Part shown: positions 45,976-61,786 of the stretch, piece by piece | How positions within the stretch are numbered: position 1 is the stretch's first letter | Layout of the letters: each line of letters begins with the position of its first letter | Virus record (IMG/VR): IMGVR_UViG_3300045988_128829 | Location: 85,817-149,816 of that record | Direction: 5' to 3' (one strand) | Source of the DNA: a virus | DNA: 64,000 nt | Program-made: the position numbers and the translations under genes | Notes under the pieces: generated by a model | Databases searched by the model: none | What the model saw: only the letters and a program-made list of their open reading frames with translations | What the model was told of the DNA's origin: nothing

Positions 45976-46205
45976 ACTCTTCTTGTGTTTCTAACCGGTA
46001 TAGGCATTATTACATTAACATTCTTGCCATATTTCTCATAAGATGTGAGTATGCATATTGCATACTTATCCCCTATCTTCAAATCTTTCGATAATCTTAA
46101 TCTTGACCCCCTTTTGATGTTAATAAAATAATCACCAAAAGGATTGATACATATCGGTTTTACGATTTCCACATAATCTCCTTCAGGAATAACAATATCA
46201 CTCAT
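45972..46205 (-). CDS. hypothetical protein (77 aa)
   Basis: ORF. Confidence 0.45.
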   Translation of the reverse strand: MSDIVIPEGDYVEIVKPICINPFGDYFINIKRGSRLRLSKDLKIGDKYAICILTSYEKYGKNVNVIMPIPVRNTRRV

Positions 46206-47518
46206 ATTACGAATCTTTTAGACATTTCCTCAGCAATATCATATACAACAATATGATCCTCTTCATTGTATGGCTTATTGATATTCAGCACTCCTTTTCT
46301 TACCTTAAACCTCTTATCTTTTCTAAGGTGATTCAACATCCCTTGTTGGAATACACAGTCTGCCTTCTCCATAGCAGCATTTTTATCAGACCATTCTTTT
46401 AGCGTATAACCTTTACTGTTCGTGCTTTTTGGAGAAAAATTCATAATGCGTGCGTCAATTCCGTACCAGTTTTTAACCATTCTCCTTTCAGCCTCCAATT
46501 GAAAAGCATGTTCATTTCGTATGTCACCCGATTTAAAATCTAAGATAACAATCTCTTCTTTCTCCACTTCTCTCACTTCCTTCTTCGGATCGCCTTTTTT
46601 GAACTGCCCCGTAGCCCTTTGATACACGGCTCCAAAATAACCTTCTTCTTTGTACTTGAATGTCATTTTAACCATCGCATCTATCGGCGTAGCTACCAAA
46701 TAATCTTCTAATGATAATATTCTTTCAATCATCATCGGCTTAACCTTATACTCCGAACAAAATTTAGCAAACTTCATAACTCTGACAATCATATCGTCAA
46801 GATCATCTATGCTACCAAAGAATTTGTCAAGATTCTTTTTTGATATTTTAAGCTTGCCTTCTTGCACTGTCTTAACTATAAAACTTCGATTTAAGACCAT
46901 ATCTCTACCCGTCAAGTACAATCCGTATAGGTAGTGCATGATCGTTCCTTTATCTGCATCATATTCTGATACTTCTTCCGGATTGCGACCAATCATCCTC
47001 ATCTCCTGTCTCCATTCTTGAAGAGCCGTCTTGTCATCTACGAATCCGTCTCTAATCATGGTTGTTACCGAGGCGTATATCTTGGCTGTCCCATCGTCCA
47101 TCTTTCTTACATAAAAACGATTACCGTCTAATGTCAATCTTACGAATTTGGGAGTCTCAATCTTCTTTAACTCATCACAGATATAAAACGGCTCTAACGT
47201 TTCCTGATTTTCTGTAAACGGATTCGAATCCTCTTCTCCAGGGTTAGAAGCGGCTTCCTCCGCCGGAGCTTCCGGTTCCTCCTTCTGGGCCTGCTCTGGC
47301 TCAGGCGCCGGCTCTTCAACTACTGGAACCTGTCCGCCTCTTTCTGCTATGTCTCTGTTCTTTATTAAAGACATAACCTCCTTCTTCAACTGCTCTGGTG
47401 TTTGATTAGGATTTGACACCGACATCACAACATCGTTCATTCTAAACAACGTATTTCCTTCTCCTTCCACCATAGGCGCAAACCCTAAATCTGTCAATAT
47501 TTTTATTTTCTCTTTCAT
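46202..47518 (-). CDS. putative recombination nuclease (PD-(D/E)XK-like, 438 aa)
   Basis: EIVILDFKSGD...FQLEA resembles a D-x(n)-(D/E)xK nuclease core. The N-terminus is acidic. Tentative. Confidence 0.4.
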   Translation of the reverse strand: MKEKIKILTDLGFAPMVEGEGNTLFRMNDVVMSVSNPNQTPEQLKKEVMSLIKNRDIAERGGQVPVVEEPAPEPEQAQKEEPEAPAEEAASNPGEEDSNPFTENQETLEPFYICDELKKIETPKFVRLTLDGNRFYVRKMDDGTAKIYASVTTMIRDGFVDDKTALQEWRQEMRMIGRNPEEVSEYDADKGTIMHYLYGLYLTGRDMVLNRSFIVKTVQEGKLKISKKNLDKFFGSIDDLDDMIVRVMKFAKFCSEYKVKPMMIERILSLEDYLVATPIDAMVKMTFKYKEEGYFGAVYQRATGQFKKGDPKKEVREVEKEEIVILDFKSGDIRNEHAFQLEAERRMVKNWYGIDARIMNFSPKSTNSKGYTLKEWSDKNAAMEKADCVFQQGMLNHLRKDKRFKVRKGVLNINKPYNEEDHIVVYDIAEEMSKRFVI

Positions 47519-47672
47519 GATCTTCCTCTAATCAATTCTTCTTTAATACAATGTAACACTGTTTCCACTTCATCTTTATCTCTATCTTTCACTGCGATAG
47601 CTATATCCTTACCATAACTCTCTCTGTATGTGAGCATAAAAGATAGTTTCATTGTCAGCTTCTATTCTTATT

Positions 47673-48188
47673 TTATAAAGTTTTCTCATATCTGTCAATT
47701 ATTTCAATAATTAATCTACCTCTTTCTTTAATCATTCCCCTGCTTTCCATATCCAGTACCTTCTTTACCGCATACTTCCACACAAAAGGAAATTCTGTTT
47801 CAAGTTTATCAAATTCCATCCGGTCAAGATACATGTCGAATACCGTATGCTCCGATTCATGTAGGAAAACTATATTATCTCTGCAAGTAGCAACCGACTT
47901 ATATATCCTTTTCGGAAGTATGTGACAGATGTTACATACTGTAGGAAAATGAATAGCCTTACCGGTCATAGACATTCGAATACTACCCAACTCTTCCAGC
48001 ATAAGACGAAAAAACCCGGATAAATCCGGGTTCTCTAACTTTTTCTTCTTGCTGCTGTTTTTAATGGATGTAATTCTGTCTTTCTTCTTCGGAGTCAACT
48101 CTTTGCTCCTGCAAGCCTGGCATAAGCCATGACTTCTTATCATTACTTTTCGTCCACATTTTTCGCAGACGTACAATTTCTTTTCCAC
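47673..48188 (-). CDS. HNH endonuclease with N-terminal zinc ribbon (171 aa)
   Basis: CEKCG...CQAC followed by CNICHILPK...DNIVFLHESEH (a C..C-H-I-P...N-L...H-x3-H HNH signature). Confidence 0.5.
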   Translation of the reverse strand: MEKKLYVCEKCGRKVMIRSHGLCQACRSKELTPKKKDRITSIKNSSKKKKLENPDLSGFFRLMLEELGSIRMSMTGKAIHFPTVCNICHILPKRIYKSVATCRDNIVFLHESEHTVFDMYLDRMEFDKLETEFPFVWKYAVKKVLDMESRGMIKERGRLIIEIIDRYEKTL

Positions 48189-48376
48189 TCTTTATAATAT
48201 CTCGATATAAGTGATATAGTTGAAAAGGATAACGCCGTTAAAGACAACGTATATGGTAAGTTCATTAACCATCTTGGTACCTCTTCTGTCTTAATCACTA
48301 TCAGCAAAGTAGCACCTGCCACTACCAATAATACAATTGCTATCGCAAGTGCTACACGGGAAATAACATCACTCAT
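48143..48376 (-). CDS. small membrane protein (77 aa)
   Basis: ORF with a long TM segment. Confidence 0.4.
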   Translation of the reverse strand: MSDVISRVALAIAIVLLVVAGATLLIVIKTEEVPRWLMNLPYTLSLTALSFSTISLISRYYKEWKRNCTSAKNVDEK

Positions 48377-48839
48377 CAGTTTTCTTTTCTCCCAATTTTT
48401 CTACGCCTTTTTGCAGATCGTATTTAAACACTTCAATGATTTTCGTTTCTGCAATAGACTCACAATTCCAGTCTCCTAACGTGCCCTGCATACCTTTAGT
48501 TAACACAGCCTCAGCGTCTTTCGGATTGCCGGCCTGGACATACATATAGCATGGCGTTTTCTTTTCTTTACCTTTCTTTTCATCCAGTGCAATGTAATTC
48601 ACCTTACACTTATACCAGTACTCAGCTTCTCCGTTGAAGAAGATTTCTGACACTTTAATAGGATTAATTTTTACAACCTCGAAAGAATTGTACAAATCCT
48701 TGAAGATCTCCAACGATCTTGATTCTGCCTCTGTGTAAGACAAGGCATCCACTAAATACTTTTCAGTTACTTTCTTTTTTTTGCCGTTCTCGATATTATC
48801 AATCTCGGCTTTTACCGTAATTTCAAACCAGCGATTCAT
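48369..48839 (-). CDS. hypothetical protein (156 aa)
   Basis: ORF. Confidence 0.5.
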   Translation of the reverse strand: MNRWFEITVKAEIDNIENGKKKKVTEKYLVDALSYTEAESRSLEIFKDLYNSFEVVKINPIKVSEIFFNGEAEYWYKCKVNYIALDEKKGKEKKTPCYMYVQAGNPKDAEAVLTKGMQGTLGDWNCESIAETKIIEVFKYDLQKGVEKLGEKKTDE

Positions 48840-48850
48840 TGTATTAATAT

Positions 48851-49105
48851 TTAATTAGTTGATTTCTTTCCTTTTTCTATACTGTTTTTAAATCTTTCAG
48901 AACACCACTGCAAAACATCCATCATCATCATCTCATTATTAGATAAGATACCTTTTATAACTAACGCCAATTGATGTTGTGACATTCTTTGACTCATATC
49001 AAATCTTCTTTCCTCTTCATTTACTATCGTAGCCACGAAATACTTACACCCCTCTAAGTGCGTTAGGGCTTCAATCATAGCTTCTTTTATCTCTTTTTCT
49101 TCCAT
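48851..49105 (-). CDS. hypothetical protein (84 aa)
   Basis: ORF. Confidence 0.45.
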   Translation of the reverse strand: MEEKEIKEAMIEALTHLEGCKYFVATIVNEEERRFDMSQRMSQHQLALVIKGILSNNEMMMMDVLQWCSERFKNSIEKGKKSTN

Positions 49106-49177
49106 CCTGTTTGTTTTTTGGACAAAGATATGTCTTTTGATAATAAAAAAGATTCAAAATGATTTAATTTAGCTTAA

Positions 49178-49846
49178 TTACTGCTCTTTTGATTCTTCCG
49201 GTATAGGCATGTCAAACTTTTTTCTGATAAACGACTCTGTTTCTTCATTAAACGGATAGGCCTCCTTGATAAATTTCATAGCTACTTCCAGGTCGCCGTC
49301 TGCTATATCTTTATACCTTTCAAAGATACCAACCAGGTCATTGTTATATGAACGCTCTTGTTTTATGTTGTACACGTATTTTAACACCCTGTCTTTGATT
49401 TCATTGGCTTTTTTCACAGTATCATTGAAGGATTTTATACTTTTCAATTCTGGATCTTCGTTTTCCTTGTTTACCTTATCAAACTCTTCCTTGCTATACC
49501 CCGCCTCCTCTTTAATAGCCGGGCAAACACTTTCCCCTATGATCCGAAATTGTTCATACGAGCCTGTCAGAAACCTTGATTCTGTTTTAAATGCATTATA
49601 TTTAACAAGCAAATTAGCCACCTCTGTTGCACCTTCTATGGTTCTAAAACCGATGCCGATATCTTTTAACATAAATACTGGAACTCCTGTTCTTGGATAC
49701 ACGACTTCTTTTTCGTTCTTTATATTCCAGTTTTTAGCTTCAATTGGAATACCTTTACCAGCAAGCTCTTTGTCTATATACAGATATATCTCTTTGCATG
49801 TCAATGACACAATCTCATCCCTGCTTAAATCAAAAACTGTTTTCAT
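49178..49846 (-). CDS. hypothetical protein (222 aa)
   Basis: ORF. The antisense ORF 49266..49868 was rejected. Confidence 0.55.
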   Translation of the reverse strand: MKTVFDLSRDEIVSLTCKEIYLYIDKELAGKGIPIEAKNWNIKNEKEVVYPRTGVPVFMLKDIGIGFRTIEGATEVANLLVKYNAFKTESRFLTGSYEQFRIIGESVCPAIKEEAGYSKEEFDKVNKENEDPELKSIKSFNDTVKKANEIKDRVLKYVYNIKQERSYNNDLVGIFERYKDIADGDLEVAMKFIKEAYPFNEETESFIRKKFDMPIPEESKEQ

Positions 49847-50046
49847 TTCTTTTTATTTATTAAATTAAACAATCTACCTCTTTGTTCAGGCTCCGTATAT
49901 TCCACCCATATATCGGCTGCCACATTTCTAAGAAATTCCATAAAGTCTTGATGATCCCTGTATTCAGCAGAATCAACTTTTCTCACAAAACTTAGAATTT
50001 CCTTTAACATCTTATTGTTTTCTTCAAGAAGTTCTCTGTCGGTCAT
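49843..50046 (-). CDS. hypothetical protein (67 aa)
   Basis: ORF with a 4-nt overlap. Confidence 0.4.
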   Translation of the reverse strand: MTDRELLEENNKMLKEILSFVRKVDSAEYRDHQDFMEFLRNVAADIWVEYTEPEQRGRLFNLINKKK

Positions 50047-50052
50047 AACCTT

Positions 50053-50262
50053 TCAAATTTTCTTCTTATGGTGTTGATTCTTTACCGCTCCGGCTACCGC
50101 CGACAACTCCACGTCCCTTTCCATTGTTACCCGAAGATCTTCTTCTGTTAAAGAAAAAGACATAGTTAACACAGGAGTATCCTTAAAATACCAATCACAT
50201 AATTCTTTTAACTCTTTACGTTCATCCTCGTTTTTACATTTATGAATGGTAAGGTAATTCAT
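50053..50262 (-). CDS. hypothetical protein (69 aa)
   Basis: ORF. Confidence 0.4.
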   Translation of the reverse strand: MNYLTIHKCKNEDERKELKELCDWYFKDTPVLTMSFSLTEEDLRVTMERDVELSAVAGAVKNQHHKKKI

Positions 50263-50335
50263 TCTTTCCTCTTTTTCTTTGTCTGTTAAATATTTTTTTC
50301 ATAATTCTAACTTTTAAAATTGAGTATATAATTAC

Positions 50336-50596
50336 TTAAGGTAATAGATCATCCAAATAAGCCCATGATTCCATTTCATCTAATCTGCATAAAATACATC
50401 CTGGACGGCTGGATATAAAAGTTCTGTTCTCTTCCAATATACCCATAATTGGATTCTTTGACCCTATTGTTGATTTCTTAGGGAGAAACACAATAAAACG
50501 GTGGCAATCTGGAATTACTGTTATAGAATGCCACACAGAGTTGATGCGCCACTCTGCACCAGCTTTAAAAAGAGGAATAACATATTCTTGTTCCAT
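50336..50596 (-). CDS. hypothetical protein (86 aa)
   Basis: ORF. Confidence 0.4.
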   Translation of the reverse strand: MEQEYVIPLFKAGAEWRINSVWHSITVIPDCHRFIVFLPKKSTIGSKNPIMGILEENRTFISSRPGCILCRLDEMESWAYLDDLLP

Positions 50597-50602
50597 GTCT
50601 AT

Positions 50603-51058
50603 TTAGTTTTGAATTAATGTGAAAAGAGCAATTATAGCCGCAACTGATATAATAGATAAAATAACGTTTGCCAATGCATGCTTTAAGAGGCGCCTTTCGA
50701 GATTTGCGATATGCTTTCTTAGTCCTTCGCAATGTTTTTTTGTAGATCTGGATTCTTTGAGTTCTTTGTTGTATTTTACCATATTTTTGTCGCACCATTT
50801 CATTATATCAGCACTTGCTTTGTTAAGCATATCTCTGATTTTTTTATCATCATAGAATGGTATTTCAACACCAACACAAGTATATGGACTGTATAATAAT
50901 CCGTATGTATCAAAGCACACTTTCAATGTGACAACTTCAGGCTTAGCCATTTCTTCGGCTTGTTTCTTTATCTGCTCATCTGTTGCTTCGGCTTTAGCTT
51001 TAAGCTCATTGTAGTCTTCTATATTCAGCAAAGCCATGTTTTCAAATTCTGTATTCAT
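50603..51058 (-). CDS. hypothetical protein with C-terminal TM anchor (151 aa)
   Basis: ORF. Confidence 0.5.
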   Translation of the reverse strand: MNTEFENMALLNIEDYNELKAKAEATDEQIKKQAEEMAKPEVVTLKVCFDTYGLLYSPYTCVGVEIPFYDDKKIRDMLNKASADIMKWCDKNMVKYNKELKESRSTKKHCEGLRKHIANLERRLLKHALANVILSIISVAAIIALFTLIQN

Positions 51059-51256
51059 ATCTACTATTTCTTATTTAGAGTGAATGTTTGCCAAATGCTT
51101 TATCCCAACGCCTGTTTGCTATCTGTACACGTACTACCAACGCATCACGATATTTACGGGATTAGATGGTTCTTATGTGGCGGATGTTGGTAATCCTAAC
51201 AACGCATTCGTACTGATTTTTGCAAACTGTTCATTCAATTATTATTTAATTATGTA

Positions 51257-52141
51257 TTATTTATAATCCTGATATGCACAGCTTTTAAATGCTGCTTTCA
51301 TATTGACCCACCGGGCAAAACGTCTTTGTTCGGCTGTAGGTGGTATGTTTGTGTCCAAGTCCCGGTATGCCATAGCAAAAGGGACGCATCCTAATCGATC
51401 AAGATATAAGGCTCTTCTTTCGGCATCTTCGATTTGCCCATCCTTTACAAGCATATAGAAAAACAACTTCCTGCCAGGGATCCCAGCTTCTTTCAAGTAA
51501 GCGATAGCTGTTTCCACTTCGTCTGTTATGGCAGAGTGGTCATAAGCCATCCTTATAAACTTAATCCACCTTACACGTTTTAGCAGCTTAGCAATTGATT
51601 TATCGCGAGCTATAAGCCTGCAATCTATCCCTTGATTAAAGTCTACTTTTACTTTGAGCGATATGATCTTCTCTATCTGTTGTAGTCCCCAGTCGGATGC
51701 GATCACGTTGTTATCCATCAATATCGCCGATTTACGTCCGTCCAAAAATTCTGTGATGTCAGAATGTTTCCGGATCCCACCTTCTTTACGAGGAACGATA
51801 CAGAAAGAGCATTTGTTTACACATCCGCGAGTAAGAAAACCATACGCTTCCGGGAACATTGGATATAGCGAGTAATCCGGGCATATATGTTCAATGTCTT
51901 CCGGTAACCATTGATCGAACAACTTGTATCCAGATCCACCTCTTACTACTTCATCGGCTTGTATTACCCTTTCTTCATCCAACGTAAAACCAAAAACTTT
52001 GCTAAGATAAACCCGATCGTAATAATCGATACCGGTATACCATTCTACCTGATCTCCTTTCGCCTTATGATAGGCAGACAACTTCATCAGTGCCAGGTTA
52101 GGGTAATGATGTCCGTCAACATCAATCATTCCAATCTTCAT
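51257..52141 (-). CDS. radical SAM domain protein (294 aa)
   Basis: CxxxCxxC cluster (GCVNKCSFC). The N-terminal Rossmann/B12-binding-like region starts MKIGMIDVDG. The ATG at 52141 is preferred over the upstream start of the ORF track. Confidence 0.65.
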   Translation of the reverse strand: MKIGMIDVDGHHYPNLALMKLSAYHKAKGDQVEWYTGIDYYDRVYLSKVFGFTLDEERVIQADEVVRGGSGYKLFDQWLPEDIEHICPDYSLYPMFPEAYGFLTRGCVNKCSFCIVPRKEGGIRKHSDITEFLDGRKSAILMDNNVIASDWGLQQIEKIISLKVKVDFNQGIDCRLIARDKSIAKLLKRVRWIKFIRMAYDHSAITDEVETAIAYLKEAGIPGRKLFFYMLVKDGQIEDAERRALYLDRLGCVPFAMAYRDLDTNIPPTAEQRRFARWVNMKAAFKSCAYQDYK

Positions 52142-52165
52142 GATCTCACATTTATTTAAGTTGTT

Positions 52166-52189
52166 GCTCCCGACATTTGAGACGGGAGC
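52166..52189 (-). other. perfect 7-bp hairpin (GCTCCCG/CGGGAGC) in the leader of the radical SAM gene
   Basis: Inverted repeat with a 10-nt loop between the stop at 52199 and the start at 52141. Confidence 0.35.
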
Positions 52190-52198
52190 AAACAATAA

Positions 52199-52597
52199 CT
52201 ACTTTTTCATTAATTCAATGCGGGTTCTTAAAGTCAATAAATAGTCGTGCATTTCGATTTTCTGCTGCTCCATCAGTGCTACTTGCATTTCACCGGCTAT
52301 TTCAACTGCTTCTTTTCGTCCAAGGAACAATACCAATTTATTATACTTTTCCATCAATTCATTGTATTCAATACACATACGATCAAGAGGAGTTTCGGCC
52401 ACTTTGTATGCTCTTTCAAACACATCTTTTGGTGACCAGCTTTCATATCCATCTTCGTAACGAACGTGATAACCTTGCTCGGTTTCTTCATGGTTATCAA
52501 TACTCTTGCCATAGGGGTTTCTACCCGTTTTTTGGACGAAGTCACCTAATGTCATCGCTTCTGCCTCAATAAGTTTTGTCCCAATATACTTTTTCAT
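52199..52597 (-). CDS. hypothetical protein (132 aa)
   Basis: ORF. Confidence 0.5.
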   Translation of the reverse strand: MKKYIGTKLIEAEAMTLGDFVQKTGRNPYGKSIDNHEETEQGYHVRYEDGYESWSPKDVFERAYKVAETPLDRMCIEYNELMEKYNKLVLFLGRKEAVEIAGEMQVALMEQQKIEMHDYLLTLRTRIELMKK

Positions 52598-52653: not shown

Positions 52654-52869
52654 TTATTTTAAATCATCAATTTCATAACTCCAACTCATCGCATCTTTTT
52701 CTATGATGTTATCAGCAAGCCATCCAGCTGCAATGGAATCTTCAGGAACTTCCCACGCTCCGCTATCGTAGTTTTCTATTAGATCATCATATACTTCTTC
52801 TGGAACTTCTATATCCTCTAAGCCTACTGTGTAAGTAACCGTTACGGTCAAATTCTTTATAGTTTTCAT
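52654..52869 (-). CDS. small acidic protein (71 aa)
   Basis: ORF. Confidence 0.4.
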   Translation of the reverse strand: MKTIKNLTVTVTYTVGLEDIEVPEEVYDDLIENYDSGAWEVPEDSIAAGWLADNIIEKDAMSWSYEIDDLK

Positions 52870-52882
52870 GACTCAATTATAT

Positions 52883-53110
52883 TTAGTTTGTTTTTTGGGC
52901 ACTCCAAACATTATAATCAGATTCAGGCAATTCAATAATATTCAAAATTACAATCTCAGCATTTTCACATTCAAGTGTAGATGCTATCTGCTCTATTGCT
53001 ATCTGTCTGTTCAGGTAGCATCCATCCGTCACAAAAGTGGTTTGCCCAGAACCATGTACTTTGCCATTGCCAAAATTGTATGACACTATGAAATATCTTT
53101 TTCCGCTCAT
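52883..53110 (-). CDS. hypothetical protein (75 aa)
   Basis: ORF. Confidence 0.45.
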   Translation of the reverse strand: MSGKRYFIVSYNFGNGKVHGSGQTTFVTDGCYLNRQIAIEQIASTLECENAEIVILNIIELPESDYNVWSAQKTN

Positions 53111-53126
53111 ATTTTTTTTAGTTGTG

Positions 53127-53291
53127 TTAGTTCTTATTGTCTTTTACTACAATAGCACATGTAACCATCATTTCGACAGAGACGACAAGAAGTCCAAGCC
53201 AAAAATTGATTTTAAAAGCCACTTCAGCCAAGACGGCAAGAAACAATATGTAACCAGCCAGACCTATTAAGCCAAAAATTTTTTTATTCAT
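53127..53291 (-). CDS. small two-TM membrane protein (54 aa; not in the ORF track because it is under 60 aa)
   Basis: The ATG at 53291 lies 2 nt after the HAD stop. MNKKIFGLIGLAGYILFLAVLAEVAFKINFWLGLLVVSVEMMVTCAIVVKDNKN. Its orientation fits the operon better than the + ORF 53037..53270. Confidence 0.4.
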   Translation of the reverse strand: MNKKIFGLIGLAGYILFLAVLAEVAFKINFWLGLLVVSVEMMVTCAIVVKDNKN

Positions 53292-53293
53292 AC

Positions 53294-53668
53294 CTATACT
53301 TTATTCAGATTCTCCTTCCATTTCTTTTCCTCATTCGTTATATATTCATAAATCTCCGGCCAGGTAGGCAGACCGCCCACCTGCTTGTCATCGATGTAGC
53401 AATGGGCATAAATCTTGCGGGGATCATCGCCATAGCGAGCGAGGTTCTGCGGTTCATGGGCATTGATGCGGTCAAAGGGGATACCTTGCTCCAAGAGCCA
53501 GTTCAGAGCATCCTCCAGCCGCTCACCCCGACGACAGGTCCATAATATAATGTAATGGCCATCGTCCTTCAATTTGTTCATCATCTCTACCGCGTATGGT
53601 TTGGGATTCCCGATTTCAGGATAGGGCCCCATTGAGAGGGTTCCGTCAAAATCAACTGCAATAATCAT
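53294..53668 (-). CDS. small HAD-superfamily phosphatase (124 aa)
   Basis: N-terminal DxDGT motif (VDFDGTL). GC-rich codons, except the last ~20 codons, which are AT-rich (composition junction). Confidence 0.65.
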   Translation of the reverse strand: MIIAVDFDGTLSMGPYPEIGNPKPYAVEMMNKLKDDGHYIILWTCRRGERLEDALNWLLEQGIPFDRINAHEPQNLARYGDDPRKIYAHCYIDDKQVGGLPTWPEIYEYITNEEKKWKENLNKV

Positions 53669-54231
53669 ACCCCGTCCTCCATTTTATTGGCTGCCTTGAT
53701 TTCATACTTGTCGTAATAGACCCGTTCACGGTCGGTGAAGCAGCGGTCTGAGATCAGGTCGAGAAGCTTCATGAAGTTCAGCTCATTGCCGACGCGCAGG
53801 TCGGCTCCCTCGAAGAATACCCTTACGAACTCACGATAAGCCTTGATGGCACGGATCAGCTCTCCCTTGCGGTGTTCCCATTCGGGGACGGGCTTGAAGC
53901 CCCGGTCGCTGAAGTAGGCAAAAAACATCTCGATATGATAGATCGCCAGGTCGGCCTCGTTGAGCGACAAGTGCAGGATCTTACCGAAAAAAGCCCGTTC
54001 GGCTCGATCCATATTGCGGTTGTCGTCGTGGAACTGTTGGTCGATCCGGGAGTCTTCAAGCTCCTTTTTCAAATGTGCTATGCGCTGCATGGCCTGCTGA
54101 TGGCGGGCGTAGTTCCGGTTTCGGAGACAGGAGGCGGCATCATTCATCGCCTCACGCAGCTCCTGCTCGATCAGAAAGACCGGGCGGCATTTGTGCCGAT
54201 TGGCGGCACAGGATTGTTTCTTCTTTTTCAT
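53665..54231 (-). CDS. hypothetical protein (188 aa), Mu-like early region
   Basis: GC-rich ORF coupled to its neighbours. Confidence 0.55.
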   Translation of the reverse strand: MKKKKQSCAANRHKCRPVFLIEQELREAMNDAASCLRNRNYARHQQAMQRIAHLKKELEDSRIDQQFHDDNRNMDRAERAFFGKILHLSLNEADLAIYHIEMFFAYFSDRGFKPVPEWEHRKGELIRAIKAYREFVRVFFEGADLRVGNELNFMKLLDLISDRCFTDRERVYYDKYEIKAANKMEDGV

Positions 54232-54232
54232 C

Positions 54233-54775
54233 TTAAAATAATTTAGGTTCTTTTGATTCGTTGATATACTCCAAAAGAAGGTAGTCCAACTGTTGTACCT
54301 CCCAGTTGATGCCGGGGCGGTTCCGATAGAGGTTACGGATCAGCCGTCGGCATTCTTCGGGCATGAGGCCCGAGTCGAGCTTCGCCATCGGGAGGTTGAT
54401 ACGGTCGAGTGTGATGGTCGAGGCTTGCAAGATTTTCGCATTGCCTTTCCATATACCTTTCAAATAGATTTGCTTCACTGCCCCGATGGCATTCCTGACC
54501 GGATGATGCAGGCGGATCGTCGTGAAACAGCGGCAGTTCAACTTGCCATTGAAGTTCTCTTCAAATTCCAATCGTTCGTCCATGACTTTGTAATATTTTC
54601 CTGTTTGTTGTTTGCATTTGAAACAATAGACCATCCACTTGTTCGAAGTCCTCACCACCCGGCAGACGGTGTACCTGAAACCACAGGGGCAGACGTATAT
54701 CCAGCGACCGGGGGTGAGGGTAGTGGATTTTACCCGTTTTACAGTCGGTTGAACGACGGTTCGAGTTTCTTCCAT
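54233..54775 (-). CDS. Cys-rich/zinc-binding hypothetical protein (180 aa)
   Basis: CPCGFRY...CFKC and CRC motifs. Confidence 0.55.
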   Translation of the reverse strand: MEETRTVVQPTVKRVKSTTLTPGRWIYVCPCGFRYTVCRVVRTSNKWMVYCFKCKQQTGKYYKVMDERLEFEENFNGKLNCRCFTTIRLHHPVRNAIGAVKQIYLKGIWKGNAKILQASTITLDRINLPMAKLDSGLMPEECRRLIRNLYRNRPGINWEVQQLDYLLLEYINESKEPKLF

Positions 54776-55383
54776 ACGCCCATCTTGTCTTTCTCGAAGA
54801 AATAGAAGTTGGTCGCCGTCCCTTCGACCAGGTGTGACTCCTTGAAAAGGTTCATGATCGCGGTATATTCGGGATCATCGAACTTATCTTCCAACTCGTA
54901 GAGTTTCGAGATCGACTTATAGTCGAGATCACCATACTTGTTGCGCTCCAAAAGCGTCATCGCCAACTGGTACATCGGGTCGTCGCTTCCGGCATCCTTA
55001 CCCTCGATCCACTGCTGCAGGAACTCGATCAGGCGCGAAGCGGCGATATCGGCACGCTCATCAAAACGTTTCACTTTGTTTGACCTCACTTCGATACGGA
55101 AGCACCCCTCCTGGACGGTGAACGACATCTGTCCCTCGCGGCGCAACTGGCCGTACTCGGCGAGCACTTGGCGGAACGCTCCGATTTCATCCACGCAAAA
55201 AGCGTGCAGCCCTTTCACTTCGTCGCACACGGAACGCACTTTGTTTTCAACTTTCTGTACTAATTCAGCACGGATGCCTTCATAGGCGGCACGTTTGTCC
55301 AACGCCTGGCGGTGTTCTTCTTCTCTCTTTTTTGCCAATAATGCTTCTAAATCTTTACTTGTCAGTTTGCTTAAATCTTCCAT
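54739..55383 (-). CDS. coiled-coil hypothetical protein (214 aa), Mu-like early gene
   Basis: GC-rich ORF in an operon with the A/B genes. Confidence 0.55.
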   Translation of the reverse strand: MEDLSKLTSKDLEALLAKKREEEHRQALDKRAAYEGIRAELVQKVENKVRSVCDEVKGLHAFCVDEIGAFRQVLAEYGQLRREGQMSFTVQEGCFRIEVRSNKVKRFDERADIAASRLIEFLQQWIEGKDAGSDDPMYQLAMTLLERNKYGDLDYKSISKLYELEDKFDDPEYTAIMNLFKESHLVEGTATNFYFFEKDKMGVWKKLEPSFNRL

Positions 55384-55401
55384 GATTTTTTGATTTATGA
55401 A

Positions 55402-55653
55402 TTATGAATTTGATTTATGTTTGTATTTCATGTATTCGCTACGGAGAAAGGTAAGCGACTGTTCAAGTTGCTCGATCTCCTCTTCCCATTCGCGAAGCAG
55501 GCGGCGCTGTGCCTCCATGTCGGGTGTGGCGCGTGTGAGCAGCATATCGGCAAGAAATGCTGCGTCGTCCTTCAGTTTCTCCTGCCGGCGACGGATCTGC
55601 CGTCCACGCCGCTCGATCTCTTCCAGTTTGTCCTTTATTGGAATGTAACCCAT
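55402..55653 (-). CDS. small coiled-coil protein (83 aa)
   Basis: ORF. Confidence 0.45.
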   Translation of the reverse strand: MGYIPIKDKLEEIERRGRQIRRRQEKLKDDAAFLADMLLTRATPDMEAQRRLLREWEEEIEQLEQSLTFLRSEYMKYKHKSNS

Positions 55654-55659
55654 AGCTCC

Positions 55660-56154
55660 TTAGTTTTTGCCGACAGGGTGGTCCAGTTCAGGGTTACCCT
55701 CTATGCCTACGCTGTTGCGCTTACGATAGAGGTTGTAGATGGCTGTCAGTTTGTCGTCCGGTATTGCGTTGAAGTTGCCGCAATTGGCCGCCCGACAGGC
55801 GATGCCTTTCACATACATCAACTTATGCCGGTCGTCACGAAACTTGTAGCCCAATTTGTCGACCCACTGGCAGATGGCGGCGATCACCCTTTTGGCAGAC
55901 CGGTCGCGCCGCTCCTCGTAGGCCATCAGCCTCTTTTCTCCCTTGGGCTTCATCGCATCGATCATCCGACTGTACTCCGACGGATAGTTCTCATACATCT
56001 CGTTGAGCGAGGTGGTACGCCCACCGCTATGTTCATGTACGATACCCTCCTTGATCACTTCCTTGTAACAAGGATCGTAACCCGGCGTTTCCTTCAACAA
56101 AGTCCAGAAGAGGGCGTGGGAATGTTTTTTCGTTTGTCTCTTGGTTGTTGCCAT
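55660..56154 (-). CDS. hypothetical protein (164 aa)
   Basis: Internal ATG at 56154 (MATTKRQTKK...) of track ORF 55660..56493. The longer N-terminal extension would overlap the next gene by 320 nt in another frame. Confidence 0.55.
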   Translation of the reverse strand: MATTKRQTKKHSHALFWTLLKETPGYDPCYKEVIKEGIVHEHSGGRTTSLNEMYENYPSEYSRMIDAMKPKGEKRLMAYEERRDRSAKRVIAAICQWVDKLGYKFRDDRHKLMYVKGIACRAANCGNFNAIPDDKLTAIYNLYRKRNSVGIEGNPELDHPVGKN

Positions 56155-56173
56155 ACTGTATTGTTTCTGAATG

Positions 56174-56812
56174 TTATTTAACTTGATCAAAATCCTGTCC
56201 GTAGTAAAGAACTGCCTTCTCCTCCCAGATGATGAAGGGGTGCGACTTCTGTCCGTGGTCAAGGTAACGGCTGGCAGCCACGGCACGGAAACCCTCCACG
56301 TAAATCTTGCACGAACAGTCGTAACGGATGCTGTCGGCCACACCACCCTTGGGGTTCTTGCCGTCGGCGTGACTGATGAAGATGAAGAGCTTACGGGGGA
56401 AGCGGGAACGCAGGTCGCGATAGGTATCGTAGTCGATGCGGGCATATTGCAAGGAGTCGATGATAACGATATCCCAACTCTTCGGCTTTGCAAGTTTTTC
56501 TACCATCTCATCGAAGTTCATGTCCAGGAGCACCACCCGTCCGTTCACTTCCATCATTCCGGCATCCTGAAATGAACGTTGCAGTGAGAGGCTGTCGCCC
56601 TCCTCCAACGAGAGGTAGGCGACACGGCCGAACTCGGCGAGATACTTCGCCAGACGACAGGTGAAGGTGGTTTTCCCTGATCCCGACTGTCCCCAGATGA
56701 TCCATGCGCCTTGCGGTTCGGGACGGCCCAGCAGATGATAGAACGACCCGCTGAAATCCATTGCCTTTTTCCTTTCCTGCAGGAATTGTTTTATGCCTAA
56801 GATCTTTCCCAT
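56174..56812 (-). CDS. P-loop NTPase, RecA-like/AAA_24-type (212 aa)
   Basis: Walker A GQSGSGKTT and Walker B IVIIDSL. Confidence 0.6.
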   Translation of the reverse strand: MGKILGIKQFLQERKKAMDFSGSFYHLLGRPEPQGAWIIWGQSGSGKTTFTCRLAKYLAEFGRVAYLSLEEGDSLSLQRSFQDAGMMEVNGRVVLLDMNFDEMVEKLAKPKSWDIVIIDSLQYARIDYDTYRDLRSRFPRKLFIFISHADGKNPKGGVADSIRYDCSCKIYVEGFRAVAASRYLDHGQKSHPFIIWEEKAVLYYGQDFDQVK

Positions 56813-56814
56813 CG

Positions 56815-57747
56815 CTACATCTGTCCGAATTGGTTAGCGATCTGTTCACGTTTCACGAGTCGCATCAGCCGGCGCAGGTCTTCGCAGAAAAACAGGTTCT
56901 TCTCCTTGGTCTCGCCCCGTTTGTTGGTTACTTTCACGTAGCGCTTGATCTTGTCAACCTCGTTCCAGATACGGTCGGCGGTGGCATCGTCCAATCCGTT
57001 GGCGGTGCAGATTTCCTTTACATCCTGCTCGGTGGCTCCGGGTAATTCGATGTAGCTGCGTCCCAAGCGGCTGTCGATTTCGTCATAGCCTTTGGTGTTG
57101 TTACGCACACCACGGGCGATCTCTTTATGCAGGTTCTCCGTACCGGCAAGCACACAGCCCAAACGGTGCTCGGTACGGTTGTAGAGGGGGATCAGCTTGC
57201 GGAAGGCGGCCGGCTTCAGCTTGTCGGCTTCATCAATGATCAGTACCGGGTGATCACCGGCCATACCGTTGAAATATTCCGCTATCATCTTCAGCAAGGT
57301 AGGAATATCGGTATAGCCTCGCTTGGGTACACCGCAGGTGCGTTCGGCCAGCTCAACGAGGAACTGCCTGGAGTTCCACTCCTCTGCCTGGATGAAGACA
57401 ACCGAGCCGGTGAGATCCTGGTTGAAGAGGTGTTCCAAGGTTTGTGTCTTGCCACTTCCCGCCTTATTCGAGATTGCCATCCACAAAGCCTGCTGCTTGC
57501 AGGAGCGGTAAACAAACTCGATCTTGCGGTAGTTCTGGATGGTGGTCACCACCTGCCAACCGTCTTCCTGATAGCCTAAAGTGGAGGCGATGCGTTTTTC
57601 CAGCTCGGCGCTGTTCGCGCCGTACTTCCCGTTCATCCATTGGCTAAGGGCGGTACCTGATATACCACATTTCTCTGCAACCTTACTCTGTGATCCAAGC
57701 CGGGTGATCCAGTCACCTACGTGTTTCAATAATCCGTTTCTGTTCAT
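56815..57747 (-). CDS. MuB-like transposition AAA+ ATPase with N-terminal HTH (310 aa)
   Basis: N-terminal HTH (SKVAEKCGISGTALSQW), Walker A NKAGSGKTQ and Walker B VLIIDEADKL. Size and architecture match MuB/TniB. Lies directly downstream of the DDE transposase. Confidence 0.75.
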   Translation of the reverse strand: MNRNGLLKHVGDWITRLGSQSKVAEKCGISGTALSQWMNGKYGANSAELEKRIASTLGYQEDGWQVVTTIQNYRKIEFVYRSCKQQALWMAISNKAGSGKTQTLEHLFNQDLTGSVVFIQAEEWNSRQFLVELAERTCGVPKRGYTDIPTLLKMIAEYFNGMAGDHPVLIIDEADKLKPAAFRKLIPLYNRTEHRLGCVLAGTENLHKEIARGVRNNTKGYDEIDSRLGRSYIELPGATEQDVKEICTANGLDDATADRIWNEVDKIKRYVKVTNKRGETKEKNLFFCEDLRRLMRLVKREQIANQFGQM

Positions 57748-57771
57748 ATCGTGTCTGTTTTTTTATATCGT

Positions 57772-59847
57772 TTAAAAATCATTTAAAAAGTCGCTGTAAT
57801 CATCACTGAAAGTGAAATCGTCCTCTTCGTTTGTGATCTCTTCCTGCTTTGGAACTCTCGGCAGGACGATCGGTTCCTTACGCCCGGCTACTTCGTTGCG
57901 TACATCCTTATGTCGGCCCAGCGAGTCGGTGATCACGTGAGCAGTGAGGGTATTCGACAGGTCCTCGTTCTCTTCAAACAGCTCGCGGACGATCTCGCCG
58001 CTGCGGGCACGTTTCAGAACGATGTCATCCACATACTCCTTGTTGAAGTTGAACACCCGGTGCAGCTGTTCGGCATCACCCTCCTCACGATCTTTCAGCG
58101 CCATAGGCTGTTCGTACTTGCGTTCGAGGACGAACCTCACGCCGCCCTCTTTCGGTTCTTTCTGCGTACCGATATTCTCGACAGCGATCACCCGGTCCAT
58201 GTCGGAGGGATCGTATTTGAGGAAGAAAGTCGTGTGCCCATAACTGCGGAACTCCTTGTCGAAACATTCATACTGGAAACGATGACCGCCCACCTGCAGA
58301 TGCACGCCATCACCCCTAAGCGGGCGAGGAGCAGCTGTCTCGCCAAAAGCCAACAGGAAGTCTTCAGGGGCAAACAGCTGGCGGTCGGTTTCGGGAAGAT
58401 CGATCCACCGGTTGATGTATTCCTCGCGCTTGGTGGCGCGGTCGAAATCGATCATCTTTACCAACTGCCGGCAGCATCCTTCGAAATCGGGGAAGTCACG
58501 TTTGTGAGTCTCGATCCAGTCATCGGACACTTGCAGCTTTTGGCGGCTCTTCACGCCGTGGCCGCTGCTGTTGGGCAGAAGGCGCAGCCATTGCCGGTTG
58601 AACTGGTTGAAGAAAGGTTCGATGATCTTCGACTTTGCGTTTTTTACAGCTGCCGGAGTGTACCAGTGGCCGACCGCTTCGTAGAAACACTTCAGATGGC
58701 CTCGGCCGTAATTGTCGGTCTGCACTTGCCAGGGCTTGAAATAAGATCCGAACAGCTCCTTCACATGCTCGAAGGCGTTGCGGAAAGCCTGGCGGATCAG
58801 TGCGGCCGACTCGTGGCGACCGATGGCATAACCGATGATGTATTTGTTGAAAGGATCGACAATGGCAACGACTGTGGGACGATGATGGTAGGTTGTAACG
58901 CTTCGGCCACGACTGTCAGTGGCACGTGCCTGGTAGAACAGTTCCGTATCCCATCCGTCGACACACCAGAAGTACATCGGCGCAGTGGGGGCCGTACGTG
59001 TCACCTGCATCAGCTTGTTGTTGGCAAGTGCACTCTTTCCGTAGCGTCCGGCATAACATTCGGGATGTTCCTTGCGGTAGTTGGCAACGGTTGCACCGGT
59101 GATAGGTTTCCAGTTCATACGACCGGCAACGGCATTGTAGAGCCGTGCCACCGTCTCGTTGTCGATGTTGCGTCCGTCACCGATCAGTTCGACGATCAGT
59201 GCCTCCTGGCGGCTCTCTTTGTTCTTGCGGGCGTTGTTGTTCTTCATCTTGCCGCTGATCAGACTCTCGTAACCCTCCTCGCTGTACTTCAGGGCAACCC
59301 TTTTCAGCGCAAGATGGTTCTTGGGCAGGCGACAGCCGACGACATCCTGTATCTCGTTCAGCTCACGGCTGGTCTCCGGCCAGACGCGGTTGTAGGGTTT
59401 GCCGTATTGCTTGATGAAGAGCGAACGGTTGCCCGTCAGCTCCAAGACGGCGTTCAACGCCGAAGCGTTGGCAACGTACAACTCGACATATTCCGGCTTC
59501 AGGTGGTCGTGCGGACGCCCCTCGAAAGTCCAGCCTCGGAAGAACTGCTCTGCCATCGGATCGCGTCGGATCATCTCTTTCAGCACATAGCGTTTCGGTT
59601 CGGTTTCGAAAGTTTCCCCCTTGCGGGCTTCCACCTCCTGCTTGACGCTGTCGGGCAGGGAGGCATAAAGAACCAAAGCGGGCGTACCGTAACAGGCACG
59701 GTTCAGCACCTGCAGTTTGCCCGTCTTCTTGTAATATTTGAAGTTGGACTCCGACAGGATCGGCCGTTTCAGCGGATCAACCGCCAACGGATCGCCTGCC
59801 GTCAGCTCAGCGTATGATATGCACAGTTGATTCTTGTAGAATTCCAT
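57772..59847 (-). CDS. Mu-like DDE transposase (MuA/TnsB-type, rve integrase core; 691 aa)
   Basis: DDE triad context (WCVDGWDT ... VQTDNYGRGH ... IEPFFNQFNRQW), size near MuA, followed by a MuB-like gene. Confidence 0.8.
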   Translation of the reverse strand: MEFYKNQLCISYAELTAGDPLAVDPLKRPILSESNFKYYKKTGKLQVLNRACYGTPALVLYASLPDSVKQEVEARKGETFETEPKRYVLKEMIRRDPMAEQFFRGWTFEGRPHDHLKPEYVELYVANASALNAVLELTGNRSLFIKQYGKPYNRVWPETSRELNEIQDVVGCRLPKNHLALKRVALKYSEEGYESLISGKMKNNNARKNKESRQEALIVELIGDGRNIDNETVARLYNAVAGRMNWKPITGATVANYRKEHPECYAGRYGKSALANNKLMQVTRTAPTAPMYFWCVDGWDTELFYQARATDSRGRSVTTYHHRPTVVAIVDPFNKYIIGYAIGRHESAALIRQAFRNAFEHVKELFGSYFKPWQVQTDNYGRGHLKCFYEAVGHWYTPAAVKNAKSKIIEPFFNQFNRQWLRLLPNSSGHGVKSRQKLQVSDDWIETHKRDFPDFEGCCRQLVKMIDFDRATKREEYINRWIDLPETDRQLFAPEDFLLAFGETAAPRPLRGDGVHLQVGGHRFQYECFDKEFRSYGHTTFFLKYDPSDMDRVIAVENIGTQKEPKEGGVRFVLERKYEQPMALKDREEGDAEQLHRVFNFNKEYVDDIVLKRARSGEIVRELFEENEDLSNTLTAHVITDSLGRHKDVRNEVAGRKEPIVLPRVPKQEEITNEEDDFTFSDDYSDFLNDF

Positions 59848-59876
59848 ATCGTTCCGTTTTTAGAAATTTATCATTG

Positions 59877-59958
59877 TTCCCGGAAGCGGATTCGAACCGC
59901 TGACCATATCGCCTGAATTACCAGTTCCGATTGTTCTGCCTGACTGAACTATCCGGGA
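59877..59958 (-). tRNA. tRNA-like element, possibly tRNA-Thr(GGU) with atypical spacer lengths (82 nt)
   Basis: Perfect 7-bp acceptor stem (TCCCGGA/TCCGGGA), D arm GTTC-AGTCAGGCA-GAAC and T arm AGCGG-TTCGAAT-CCGCT. Candidate anticodon loop CT-GGT-AA has U33 and A37, but there are 3 nt before the anticodon stem and an 11-nt variable region. Confidence 0.4.
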
Positions 59959-60019
59959 TACCACCCTCGTACCGCGGGCCGCGTACCGATGCTAAACCAA
60001 AACCAATCTTAATTGAGAC

Positions 60020-60256
60020 CTAAACCGATTGTTTATCCTTGTCGCTGCCACCAAGCAGCCGAACCATCCATTCTTCGAAACGGTCCAACTCGCATAAGCA
60101 AGCCGCTTCGTTACCGATCAGCATGTAGCTGAAGAAGAACCAGACCGAACAGAGCAGACTTCCCGCCAGTATGCTGCCATGTTCCATCGTTCCGATTCCG
60201 GCAAACAGGAACAGCCAACTCAATGCCCATCCGTAAAGTATCACCTTCGCCTTCAT
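60020..60256 (-). CDS. small membrane protein (78 aa)
   Basis: ORF with two TM helices. Confidence 0.45.
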   Translation of the reverse strand: MKAKVILYGWALSWLFLFAGIGTMEHGSILAGSLLCSVWFFFSYMLIGNEAACLCELDRFEEWMVRLLGGSDKDKQSV

Positions 60257-60268
60257 AATTCTCCATTG

Positions 60269-60643
60269 TCAATTACCCAGTTGTGCCTTTGCCAGCATCT
60301 TGGTTTCAATCACGAGAGCGGGATCAGTCAGTTCCATCCAGCCGAAGCGTGTCTTCAGCAGCCGGTCTAACACCGCCCAGTTCTCCAAGCTGACGCAGTC
60401 GTTGTAGTTGTACCACTGCGTTTCGCCTGTCTTCGTATCCAACCCGGTGATTCCCCAGAACTCCTTACCCTGCTGCCCGATGACAACCTTACACGCGCCT
60501 TTCGCGATCACTACGCGGAACACCGGGCGTTCCTCCTCCTTCCTGCCGGTATAGACCAGCATACGGAAGTTGTCTTCATACGGCGCGTCCATCTCGAACA
60601 GTGCCTCACACAGCGCTTTGTAGTCGATTCTCTTTGTTTCCAT
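60269..60643 (-). CDS. hypothetical protein (124 aa)
   Basis: ORF. Confidence 0.5.
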   Translation of the reverse strand: METKRIDYKALCEALFEMDAPYEDNFRMLVYTGRKEEERPVFRVVIAKGACKVVIGQQGKEFWGITGLDTKTGETQWYNYNDCVSLENWAVLDRLLKTRFGWMELTDPALVIETKMLAKAQLGN

Positions 60644-60760
60644 CTTTTTCTGTCGTTTTTAGAATTATCTGTCTGTCCCGGCTGCGGTCTCGCTCCGCTA
60701 TGTGCGAGTCATAAGCTCTCTTGGCCGGGTGTAAGGGTTAGCAGTCTTTATATGTCGCGA

Positions 60761-61435
60761 TTAAGATTTCTCTTCGTCCCACTCGATGCACATCTGCTCG
60801 CAGATTGGCACAGGGTCGGGATAGGTGATACCTTGACTTCGGTTCTGCTTGGCCAGGCTGGTGATCCGTCGAACCACGTCTTTGCTGACAGATGTCCCGG
60901 CATAGACCTTGCGCACGTGCGGATAACTAACACCTATACCTTCTGCCACCTCTGCCAACTCGTTCCGGCTGATATAGGGCTTCACCCGCTGCTTCCATTC
61001 CTCGAAGAACGGGCGGTACTTCGGAAGGGGCAGGCGCTGGCGCTGTTGTTGCTCCCGCATGCACTCCGCCTCGCCCTTGATCCGATACTGCCCGGTCTGG
61101 CGGAGCTGGGGAAGAACCTCACCGGCTACCCAGTTGACGAAGGCATCCGCCTGCGGCTTATTACTCCGGAACGCCAGTTTGTAGAGGGCCGCTTCGTTGA
61201 TGACTGACAACTGTTGCACACCTCCGCCGCGATCACCATAAGAAGGGGTGTTAAAACTCATCATCCCTTTCCAATCATCTGGAATATTGGATAATGTAGC
61301 ACCGCTCCAAGCGATATCTAAAGCGTTTGCCACATCCTTGGCTACAAACCAAGGTTCGTTGTTCAGTTGCTGCGTGCGAATTGTTACGTTCGCCTCCTCG
61401 TTGTAGAATAAATTCAGATTTGTTTCCATTTTCAA
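60761..61435 (-). CDS. BRO-N domain antirepressor-like protein (224 aa)
   Basis: N-terminal BRO-N signature (NEEANVTIRT...EPWFVAKDVANALD). Confidence 0.75.
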   Translation of the reverse strand: MKMETNLNLFYNEEANVTIRTQQLNNEPWFVAKDVANALDIAWSGATLSNIPDDWKGMMSFNTPSYGDRGGGVQQLSVINEAALYKLAFRSNKPQADAFVNWVAGEVLPQLRQTGQYRIKGEAECMREQQQRQRLPLPKYRPFFEEWKQRVKPYISRNELAEVAEGIGVSYPHVRKVYAGTSVSKDVVRRITSLAKQNRSQGITYPDPVPICEQMCIEWDEEKS

Positions 61436-61453
61436 TCCTGTTTTAAATGGCTA

Positions 61454-61645: not shown

Positions 61646-61786
61646 TAATTAATGATTAATGATTATCTTTACAGCGTCAGTTACATTTGTAATGACGGTG
61701 CAATATTATAGGATATTTTCTAATTAAGCAAATATTTATAGGATAAATTCTATTCACAAGGTAAAAACAATTAGGAGGAACTCTAT
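61646..61786. promoter_or_regulatory. divergent promoter/operator region of the lysogeny switch
   Basis: 140-bp AT-rich spacer with tandem TAATGAT repeats, a direct repeat TATAGGATA x2 and an imperfect palindrome CGTCAGTTACATTTGTAATGACG. SD AGGAGG lies before the repressor ATG. Confidence 0.45.

Follow-up and report, generated by a model that had tools for sequence, protein, structure and literature searches.

The DNA analyzed here, hereafter the window, is a stretch of 64,000 nucleotides (nt) from the IMG/VR virus record IMGVR_UViG_3300045988_128829 (positions 85,817 to 149,816). It joins parts of two different phages. The left part is a segment of an epsilon crAss-like phage, and positions 50,603 to 64,000, judging by their matches to bacterial contigs, make up the leftmost 13.4 kb of a Mu-like transposable prophage that is very common in gut Bacteroidales. 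An original prediction had placed the join of the two modules within a HAD-like gene, at a step in guanine-plus-cytosine (GC) content near 53.35 kb, and had read it as either a recombination scar or a chimeric assembly. The comparisons described below place the join instead within a cassette common to both phages. The features on which the argument rests are listed here; related loci and contigs carry numbers with the prefix L, and protein lengths are in amino acids (aa).

1..50602, no strand assigned: epsilon crAss-like phage segment with structural, replication, and early genes; relative of csAssE-Sib (OR575929.1)
50603..51270, minus strand: cassette of 668 bp common to both phages, the region of the true crAss/Mu switch, delimited by contig matches from both sides
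50603..51114, no strand assigned: 512-bp stretch identical in the window, the crAss-type contig L100, and the Mu-type contigs L103 and L117, from mismatch maps
50603..51058, minus strand: 151-aa gene with a C-terminal transmembrane (TM) anchor, which makes up the cassette together with ∼200 bp of upstream intergenic DNA
53105..61449, minus strand: conserved GC-rich early core of the Mu-like prophage (97 to 99% nt identity across variants), from blastn of L002 to L004, L006, L007, and L011 against the window and from Pfam and PHROG matches
53127..53291, minus strand: 54-aa TM gene (TM54; GC content, 0.345) in the conserved prophage block, 3′ neighbor of the HAD-like gene in 9 of 10 loci
53294..53668, minus strand: HAD-like (DxDGT) small phosphatase-fold gene, 124 aa (PHROG 1238, PDB 2obb)

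The GC step and the HAD-like gene

The abrupt compositional change was borne out by profiles at two resolutions. GC content was 0.34 to 0.40 over 49 to 53 kb of the window and 0.50 to 0.56 over 54 to 61 kb (1-kb bins), and it climbed from 0.38 to 0.49 between 53.2 and 53.5 kb at 200-bp resolution. Within the span from 52.5 to 54.2 kb, the maximum-likelihood single change point was position 53,354 (GC content, 0.342 versus 0.538), with a log-likelihood ratio (LLR) of 33.5 that was matched by 0 of 200 shuffles. This position corresponds to about codon 105 of 124 in the HAD-like gene, the one that closes the GC-rich series in the conserved early core. The switch thus falls within the last ∼20 codons of the gene, which are AT rich, as originally described: the body of the gene had a GC content of 0.52 and a GC content at third codon positions (GC3) of 0.60, and the last 20 codons had values of 0.28 to 0.29 and 0.43, respectively. 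The continuous gene orientation and the small TM gene following the HAD-like gene were likewise confirmed; all genes across the step lie on the minus strand, and the TM54 open reading frame (ORF) starts 2 nt past the HAD stop codon. GC3 was 0.60 to 0.71 in the HAD body, the 188-aa gene, and the genes for the MuA- and MuB-like proteins (0.69 to 0.71 in the latter three alone) and 0.28 to 0.41 in TM54 and the 75-aa, 71-aa, 132-aa, radical SAM, and 151-aa genes. The expectation of 50 to 55% GC to the right of the step held for 54 to 61 kb but failed beyond a second boundary at ∼61,238, where GC content falls again to ∼0.40 to 0.42, so that the GC-rich stretch is an island rather than one half of the window. 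Since the conserved block at 53,105 to 61,449 is flanked by variant-specific cassettes and repressors, this island corresponds to the conserved transposition and early core. The boundary at ∼61,238 sits within a Bro-N anti-repressor gene.

The claim that everything to the left of 53.33 kb is crAss-like did not hold. Among crAss-like genomes, csAssE-Sib resembles the window no further than 50,618 and closer relatives no further than ∼51,270, and over positions 50,603 to 53,350, Mu-like prophages in bacterial chromosomes match it at 99.97% identity. The genes low in GC that lie from 50.6 to 53.35 kb are prophage genes, because the 300.8-kb bacterial contig L010 matches the window from 50,603 to 63,668 at 99.97% identity over 13,066 bp. 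L103 and L117 were identical to the window over 50,603 to 51,700, and the order of genes around the radical SAM gene is the same in L008, L010, L103, and L104. The idea that these low-GC genes derive from the crAss-like phage was rejected by the absence of tblastn matches. None of the HAD-like, TM54, 75-aa, 71-aa, 132-aa, radical SAM, 188-aa, and 180-aa proteins had a match in ∼60 crAss-like loci plus the crAss part of the window, in which only the 151-aa protein did.

The same compositional layout recurs outside this contig. The step at 53,354 was unchanged in every independent assembly examined. In the intact prophage L103, the early core (∼0.51 to 0.56) gives way to ∼4 kb at 0.35 to 0.41, followed by structural genes at ∼0.45 to 0.53, and the immunity region at the left end is also low (0.34 to 0.43 in L113). 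The next closest lineage has a GC content of 0.51 to 0.55 upstream of the HAD-like gene, 0.58 to 0.62 in the HAD body, and 0.38 to 0.44 downstream. Among the variants compared in the present lineage, none combined a GC-rich region after the HAD and TM genes with the absence of the low-GC tail. By comparison with independent assemblies, the step at 53,354 is native to the Mu-like prophage rather than a crAss/Mu join: it is real but represents an ordinary edge between core and accessory genes inside a common prophage of gut Bacteroidales. A boundary in composition need not fall at the true join.

The HAD-like protein matched PHROG 1238 (E = 5e-36) and the PDB entry 2obb, a "hypothetical protein" (E = 3e-25), and no Pfam family at an E value of ≤0.01. 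Its translation contains the motifs MIIAVDFDGTL (D6, D8, and T10), ILWTCRR, and HCYIDDKQ. The designation HAD-like is therefore an assignment by fold and motif alone, and the product is a predicted phosphatase. In the main reading of the original prediction, this gene was a hybrid, its 3′ end of crAss-like origin having been fused by a recombination scar to a 5′ part of Mu-like origin. The location of the change point within the ORF and the AT-rich codons of its tail are what such a scar would leave, but the remaining evidence contradicts it. A total of 16,895 assembly blocks are indexed with exactly this 124-aa protein and its AT-rich tail. Each of the 10 loci shown (contigs of 212 to 635 kb) places it in this one Mu-like prophage, upstream of genes for Mu_F, Portal_Mu, and Mu_Gp36; the entire protein with its tail was thus found in Mu-like prophages of bacterial chromosomes at every locus examined. 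The 2.7 kb of low-GC genes that follow are also Mu-prophage genes, and homologues of the HAD-like, TM54, 75-aa, 71-aa, 132-aa, and radical SAM proteins were missing from the crAss-like loci searched above. Moreover, the tail motif LPTWPEIY(E/D)(Y/W)IT.(E/Q)E(K/R)KWKE is kept in relatives, and DNA homology to relatives of 77 to 81% identity is unbroken from the start codon at 53,668 to 53,310 to 53,312, through the AT-rich tail. Because the tail is conserved at this distance, the HAD-like gene is not a hybrid, and the crAss/Mu scar was rejected as having next to no chance of being correct. The change point falls slightly inside the gene because the conserved C-terminal tail is rich in Lys, Asn, Glu, Ile, and Tyr and its codons lean toward AT.

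Amino acid composition does not account for the whole tail. With the codon usage of the core, the expected GC content of the tail is 0.37, versus 0.28 observed, and about two-thirds of the drop is explained by the K/N/E/I/Y-rich amino acid sequence. Synonymous codon choice in the tail is weakly island-like (LLR, −3.1 over 20 codons), which weighs slightly against the main reading and leaves a small chance that two HAD alleles once crossed over close to the 3′ end of the gene; such an exchange would not make it a crAss/Mu hybrid. Such a crossover within the Mu-like family would have brought in the HAD 3′ end and the TM gene together with the low-GC cassette, drawn from a different allele within that gene family, and it is compatible with a step native to the prophage. 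In addition to the codon signal, the tail GC content of 0.48 to 0.51 in the closest other lineage and the behavior of TM54, which is low in GC yet moves with the core, agree with it. However, the signal comes from only 20 codons and is weak, DNA homology with relatives continues unbroken through the tail, and most of the drop is due to amino acid composition. We consider this old crossover unlikely, although it retains some weight.

The shared cassette and the position of the crAss/Mu switch

The identities of the two modules proposed originally were upheld, with epsilon crAss-like DNA at 1 to 50.6 kb (92 to 96% nt identity to csAssE-Sib) and Mu-like early, transposition, and immunity genes at 53.3 to 64 kb. 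The csAssE-Sib record OR575929.1 is the epsilon crAss-like phage crAssE-Sib of the putative genus Epsilonunovirus (Babkin et al. 2024, PMC11054128); the same paper names no host for these phages. By megablast, the window was 95.6% identical to it over 22 to 25000 and 92.1% identical over 44001 to 50618, and the two sequences were collinear. This collinearity over 1 to 50,618 stops there; crAssE-Sib differs from the window in lacking the 151-aa cassette, which many other epsilon crAss-like contigs carry.

The cassette is where contigs of the two types overlap. The crAss-type contigs L092 to L095 and L097 to L101 follow the window from 46,001 as far as ∼51,270, where they part from it, and the Mu-type contigs match it from 50,603 rightwards. 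The left border lies exactly at the stop codon. Relative to the window, crAss-type copies of the cassette were 93 to 98.5% identical over the aligned part and the Mu-type copies in L103, L117, and L262 were 100% identical. The crAss-type contig L100 (CDZQ01046167.1, 127.8 kb) showed 0 mismatches over 40,336 to 51,114 (10.8 kb), with the first difference at 51,115, and carries canonical crAss genes beyond the cassette. Since the identity of L100 with the window extends to 51,114 and that of L103 and L117 begins at 50,603, the change of parent lies within the 512 bp from 50,603 to 51,114. The GC junction in the HAD-like gene therefore does not join the crAss-like and Mu-like modules; the true switch is in the 668-bp cassette, 2.1 to 2.7 kb further left.

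The crAss-type copies themselves are patchy. At 50676 to 50888, L092, L093, and L095 have 6 to 8 single-nucleotide polymorphisms (SNPs), and L100 is identical to the Mu type; all crAss-type copies shown except that of L099 share the same 12 differences at 51,115 to 51,266. This pattern may have arisen naturally, by gene conversion between the phages, or through the mixing of consensus sequences in assembly. The 151-aa gene was also found (as the part of the repeat from about position 194 on) in L269, L274, and L285 (ULPM01006968.1, OGRB01000909.1, and ERZ1107006.184), where the flanks are neither crAss nor Mu type, so that the cassette has at least a third genomic context.

Morons and other cassettes exchangeable at module boundaries are known from mosaic lambdoid and Mu-like temperate phages. 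The cassette resembles them in consisting of a gene plus its own upstream region, in being bounded exactly at neighboring stop and start codons, in a composition unlike that of the backbone, and in its occurrence in unrelated phages of the same host range. It is present at 93 to 100% nt identity in many epsilon crAss-like contigs and Bacteroidales Mu-like prophages (L092 to L101, L117 to L169, and L260 to L302), and sharing at this level points to recent gene flow and to hosts that overlap. As a modest positive result, the cassette links the epsilon crAss-like phages, which have no cultured host, to the gene pool of Bacteroidales phages.

Chimeric contig or recombinant phage

The original prediction had also asked whether any single genome carries both halves. 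We typed ∼90 loci on both flanks, drawn from IMG/VR, a metagenome collection, and exact-protein look-ups. IMG/VR yielded ∼50 loci with crAss-type sequence on both flanks, 2 with Mu-type sequence on both, and 0 hybrids; the corresponding counts were 24, 4, and 0 in the metagenome collection and 9, 3, and 1 in the exact-protein look-ups. The only hybrid, L096 (ERZ28619523 scaffold_55, 197,736 bp; apparently BioSample SAMEA3182064), was 100% identical to the window over 10 to 11 kb and is presumably its source. No reciprocal junction occurred among the ∼90 flank-typed loci, and 10 further crAss-like contigs shown with the exact 438-aa crAss-side protein, not all of which carry the cassette, had no Mu-like genes in the 10 kb upstream. 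A mosaic genome is thus not supported by an independent assembly, one further indexed place similar to L096 aside. Furthermore, five contigs (L283, L286, L294, L301, and L302) end within the cassette, as expected at an unresolved branch point of an assembly graph.

Short-read metagenome assembly can form chimeric contigs between genomes at shared repeats. The present case resembles such chimeras in that an exact repeat longer than reads or k-mers exists in two genomes, the window contig switches genome inside it, and other assemblies either break at the cassette or take canonical paths; it differs in that chimerism is inferred here from contig comparison. In this scenario, the assembler would have passed from one genome to the other through the shared cassette repeat. 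Because L096 is the only hybrid, L100 is identical over 10.8 kb yet canonical, and several contigs end in the cassette, misassembly through the shared repeat is the most likely origin of the contig, and we hold it to be probable. The coordinates fit this picture of the source contig: its crAss part would occupy about positions 1 to 122.3 kb of the record and would be devoid of the ∼19 kb that follows in csAssE-Sib, and ∼62 kb would extend beyond the Mu left end and must be non-Mu DNA.

Several observations pull the other way. The 512 bp of perfect identity are also an adequate substrate for real homologous recombination, both phages clearly exchange the cassette in nature, and a second contig with the gene neighborhood of L096 is indexed, which may or may not be an independent sample. 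Homologous recombination in the 151-aa cassette between an epsilon crAss-like genome and a resident Mu-like prophage would leave a phage genome inserted into a Bacteroidales chromosome or, alternatively, create a recombinant phage with Mu-like early genes. The sequence common to both genomes (512 bp exact, within 668 bp at 93 to 100% across copies) would permit it, the further place indexed as similar to L096 agrees with it, and the Mu-identical tract of L100 at sites where L092, L093, and L095 have 6 to 8 SNPs is compatible with gene conversion. Integration by epsilon crAss-like phages is, in addition, still an open question (PMC11054128). Nevertheless, among the flank-typed loci there was neither another hybrid nor a reciprocal junction, and L100, which shows no mismatch over 10.8 kb, is arranged canonically. 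On csAssE-Sib coordinates, the window contig would moreover miss the last ∼19 kb of the phage, and by coordinate mapping it extends ∼62 kb beyond the Mu left end, in DNA that must be non-Mu. A biological join of the two genomes is consequently improbable. That the contig is correct as it stands, with an epsilon crAss-like genome joined to a Bacteroidales chromosome via the resident Mu-like prophage at the 151-aa cassette, is quite unlikely; if true, it would provide direct evidence of which host epsilon crAss-like phages have and that they occur in an integrated (or recombinant) state.

Transposition of the Mu-like phage into the crAss-like genome would be another route to a mosaic. Mu-like elements insert almost at random, and 10 insertion contexts were seen for this one; however, transposition must leave one end of the element at the junction. 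The Mu sequence found there comes from the middle of the genome, between accessory cassettes, and the left end is ∼403 bp past the other side of the window. Given this mid-genome position, the junction did not arise by transposition, and this route was rejected as exceedingly improbable.

Chimeric assembly, one of the two options in the original prediction, thus probably applies to the contig as a whole and not to 53.35 kb, where the step is native to the prophage. The initial observation is partly confirmed, and its interpretation is partly supported but wrong at the coordinates of the HAD-like gene: the crAss-Mu fusion is probably artefactual. This removes a false lead, in that a crAss-Mu hybrid gene does not exist and a crAss-Mu mosaic phage most likely does not either, and it illustrates that a short cassette common to two coresident phages can yield a convincing-looking chimeric contig. 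A further locus of the epsilon crAss-like group (L142/L270, IMGVR_UViG_3300045988_105517 = ERZ772884.6 NODE_6) lies on a contig of 253,222 bp, ∼100 kb above the ∼150-kb genomes of the group; this contig may be a concatemer or a further chimeric or integrated case.

The Mu-like prophage and its relatives

The remaining features of the prophage part of the window are as follows.

51257..52195, minus strand: radical SAM domain gene (294 aa as called in related loci), PHROG 9298 (E = 8.9e-95)
52199..52597, minus strand: 132-aa accessory gene; Pfam PF21825 "Sequestin" on the identical locus product (L008/L010 11072-11470)
52654..53110, minus strand: two small accessory genes, 71 aa and 75 aa, found in L006, L008, L010, L103, and L104
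56815..57747, minus strand: MuB-like AAA+ DNA transposition protein with an N-terminal helix-turn-helix, PHROG 296 (E = 2.9e-42), AAA_22, HTH_3
57772..59847, minus strand: MuA-like DDE transposase, 691 aa, PHROG 310 transposase (E = 8e-39), weak Pfam rve match
61454..63401, no strand assigned: low-GC immunity module, exchanged between variants, with a 63-aa gene (minus strand), a CI/LexA-like repressor, and 131-, 58-, and 112-aa genes
61787..62494, plus strand: the CI/LexA-like repressor, 235 aa, PHROG 4 repressor
63794..64000, minus strand: outermost 68-aa gene of the Mu-like prophage

The early core comprises the Bro-N anti-repressor, small genes, the MuA- and MuB-like genes, an AAA ATPase, a DUF3164 gene, the 188-aa gene, the HAD-like gene, and TM54. 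The genes for MuA and MuB are co-oriented on the minus strand and lie 24 bp apart, and tblastn matches of the product of 57772..59847 are annotated as MuA-like transposases. Mu-type morphogenesis genes (Phage_Mu_F, Portal_Mu, Phage_Mu_Gp36, and Phage_tail_S) follow downstream in L002 to L011, outside the window. The left end of the prophage is ∼403 bp past the end of the window: 10 loci share the identical sequence as far as locus position 9598, where they enter 10 unrelated Bacteroidota flanks; genes in these flanks include SusC/SusD, FecR, sulfatase, and the like. In L113 (9598-9700), AACGAAAAATCA occurs twice, no more than ∼100 bp from the left end, and the two copies are candidate transposase-binding repeats. 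Read along the minus strand, the prophage runs from its left end through the immunity module, anti-repressor, MuA, MuB, early genes, HAD-like gene, and TM gene to the accessory cassettes. Its backbone of ∼50 to 55% GC, made up of the early core and the structural genes, is broken by two low-GC islands swapped between variants, namely the immunity module at the left end and a 3- to 4-kb island of accessory ("moron"-type) cassettes after the HAD and TM genes, the edge of which is the step at 53,354.

The early region of bacteriophage Mu encodes the c repressor, ner, A, and B, followed by "semi-essential" accessory early genes. The prophage resembles Mu in its divergent left-end repressor, its adjacent and co-oriented MuA- and MuB-like genes, a series of small accessory genes with DUF3164 among them, its unrelated insertion sites, and its Mu_F, Portal_Mu, and gp36 head genes. 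Unlike Mu, it has Bacteroidales hosts, proteins distant from characterized ones (matches at the PHROG level), a Bro-N anti-repressor between the immunity module and the transposase, and an accessory island whose GC content is strikingly below that of the backbone. Mu-like transposable phages of gut Bacteroidales have been described around hankyphage, for which the family Candidatus Mubacviridae was proposed (PMC12135933; bioRxiv 10.64898/2026.05.11.724261). The prophage shares with them the MuA/MuB operon, Bacteroidales hosts, a high prevalence in human gut metagenomes, and a transposable lifestyle, and it belongs to the same broad kind, a placement by kind and not by family membership. It differs from hankyphage p00 in its MuA protein, which is 25 to 26% identical over 80% of its length. 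The best MuA match in the phage record collection was 38% (Elizabethkingia phage TCUEAP3), and the Mu part had no megablast match to any phage record. Identity with hankyphage was rejected on the basis of the ∼25% MuA identity and the lack of a megablast match. The species-representative genomes of GTDB did not contain the exact prophage, and their best match to the HAD-like protein was 64 to 67% (Dysgonomonas).

To the left of the core, the conserved block of most variants stops at 53,094 to 53,117, beyond which the accessory cassettes vary and carry methylases, a PAPS reductase, the radical SAM gene, an ORC/CDC6-like gene, and others. The cargo of this island (51257 to 53110 in the window and its equivalents in L004 to L009) includes the radical SAM and PF21825 "Sequestin" genes, Dam-, C5-, and D12-class methylases, the PAPS reductase, and the ORC/CDC6-like ATPase, a mix typical of what are presumed to be anti-defense or host-takeover genes. 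The 71-aa and 75-aa proteins encoded there had no family matches. At the other edge of the core, L002 to L004 and L011 have a module with a Peptidase_S24 268-aa repressor in place of that at 61454..63401. The immunity region thus differs between otherwise 98%-identical prophages, with the 235/237-aa version in L007 and L010 and the 268-aa version in L002 to L004 and L011; the swapped regions look like those of heteroimmune variants.

The 180-aa ORF (54233 to 54775) overlaps the DUF3164 gene (54739 to 55383) by 37 bp and is mostly called as 116 aa in related loci, so that its start is uncertain. Finally, intact prophages carry the 75-aa gene twice, in copies that are 98 to 99% identical (L010 13058-13301 and L103 10448-10691 versus 52882-53126 of the window), and the second copy follows directly after the 151-aa gene, at the place where the crAss-like sequence starts in the window.

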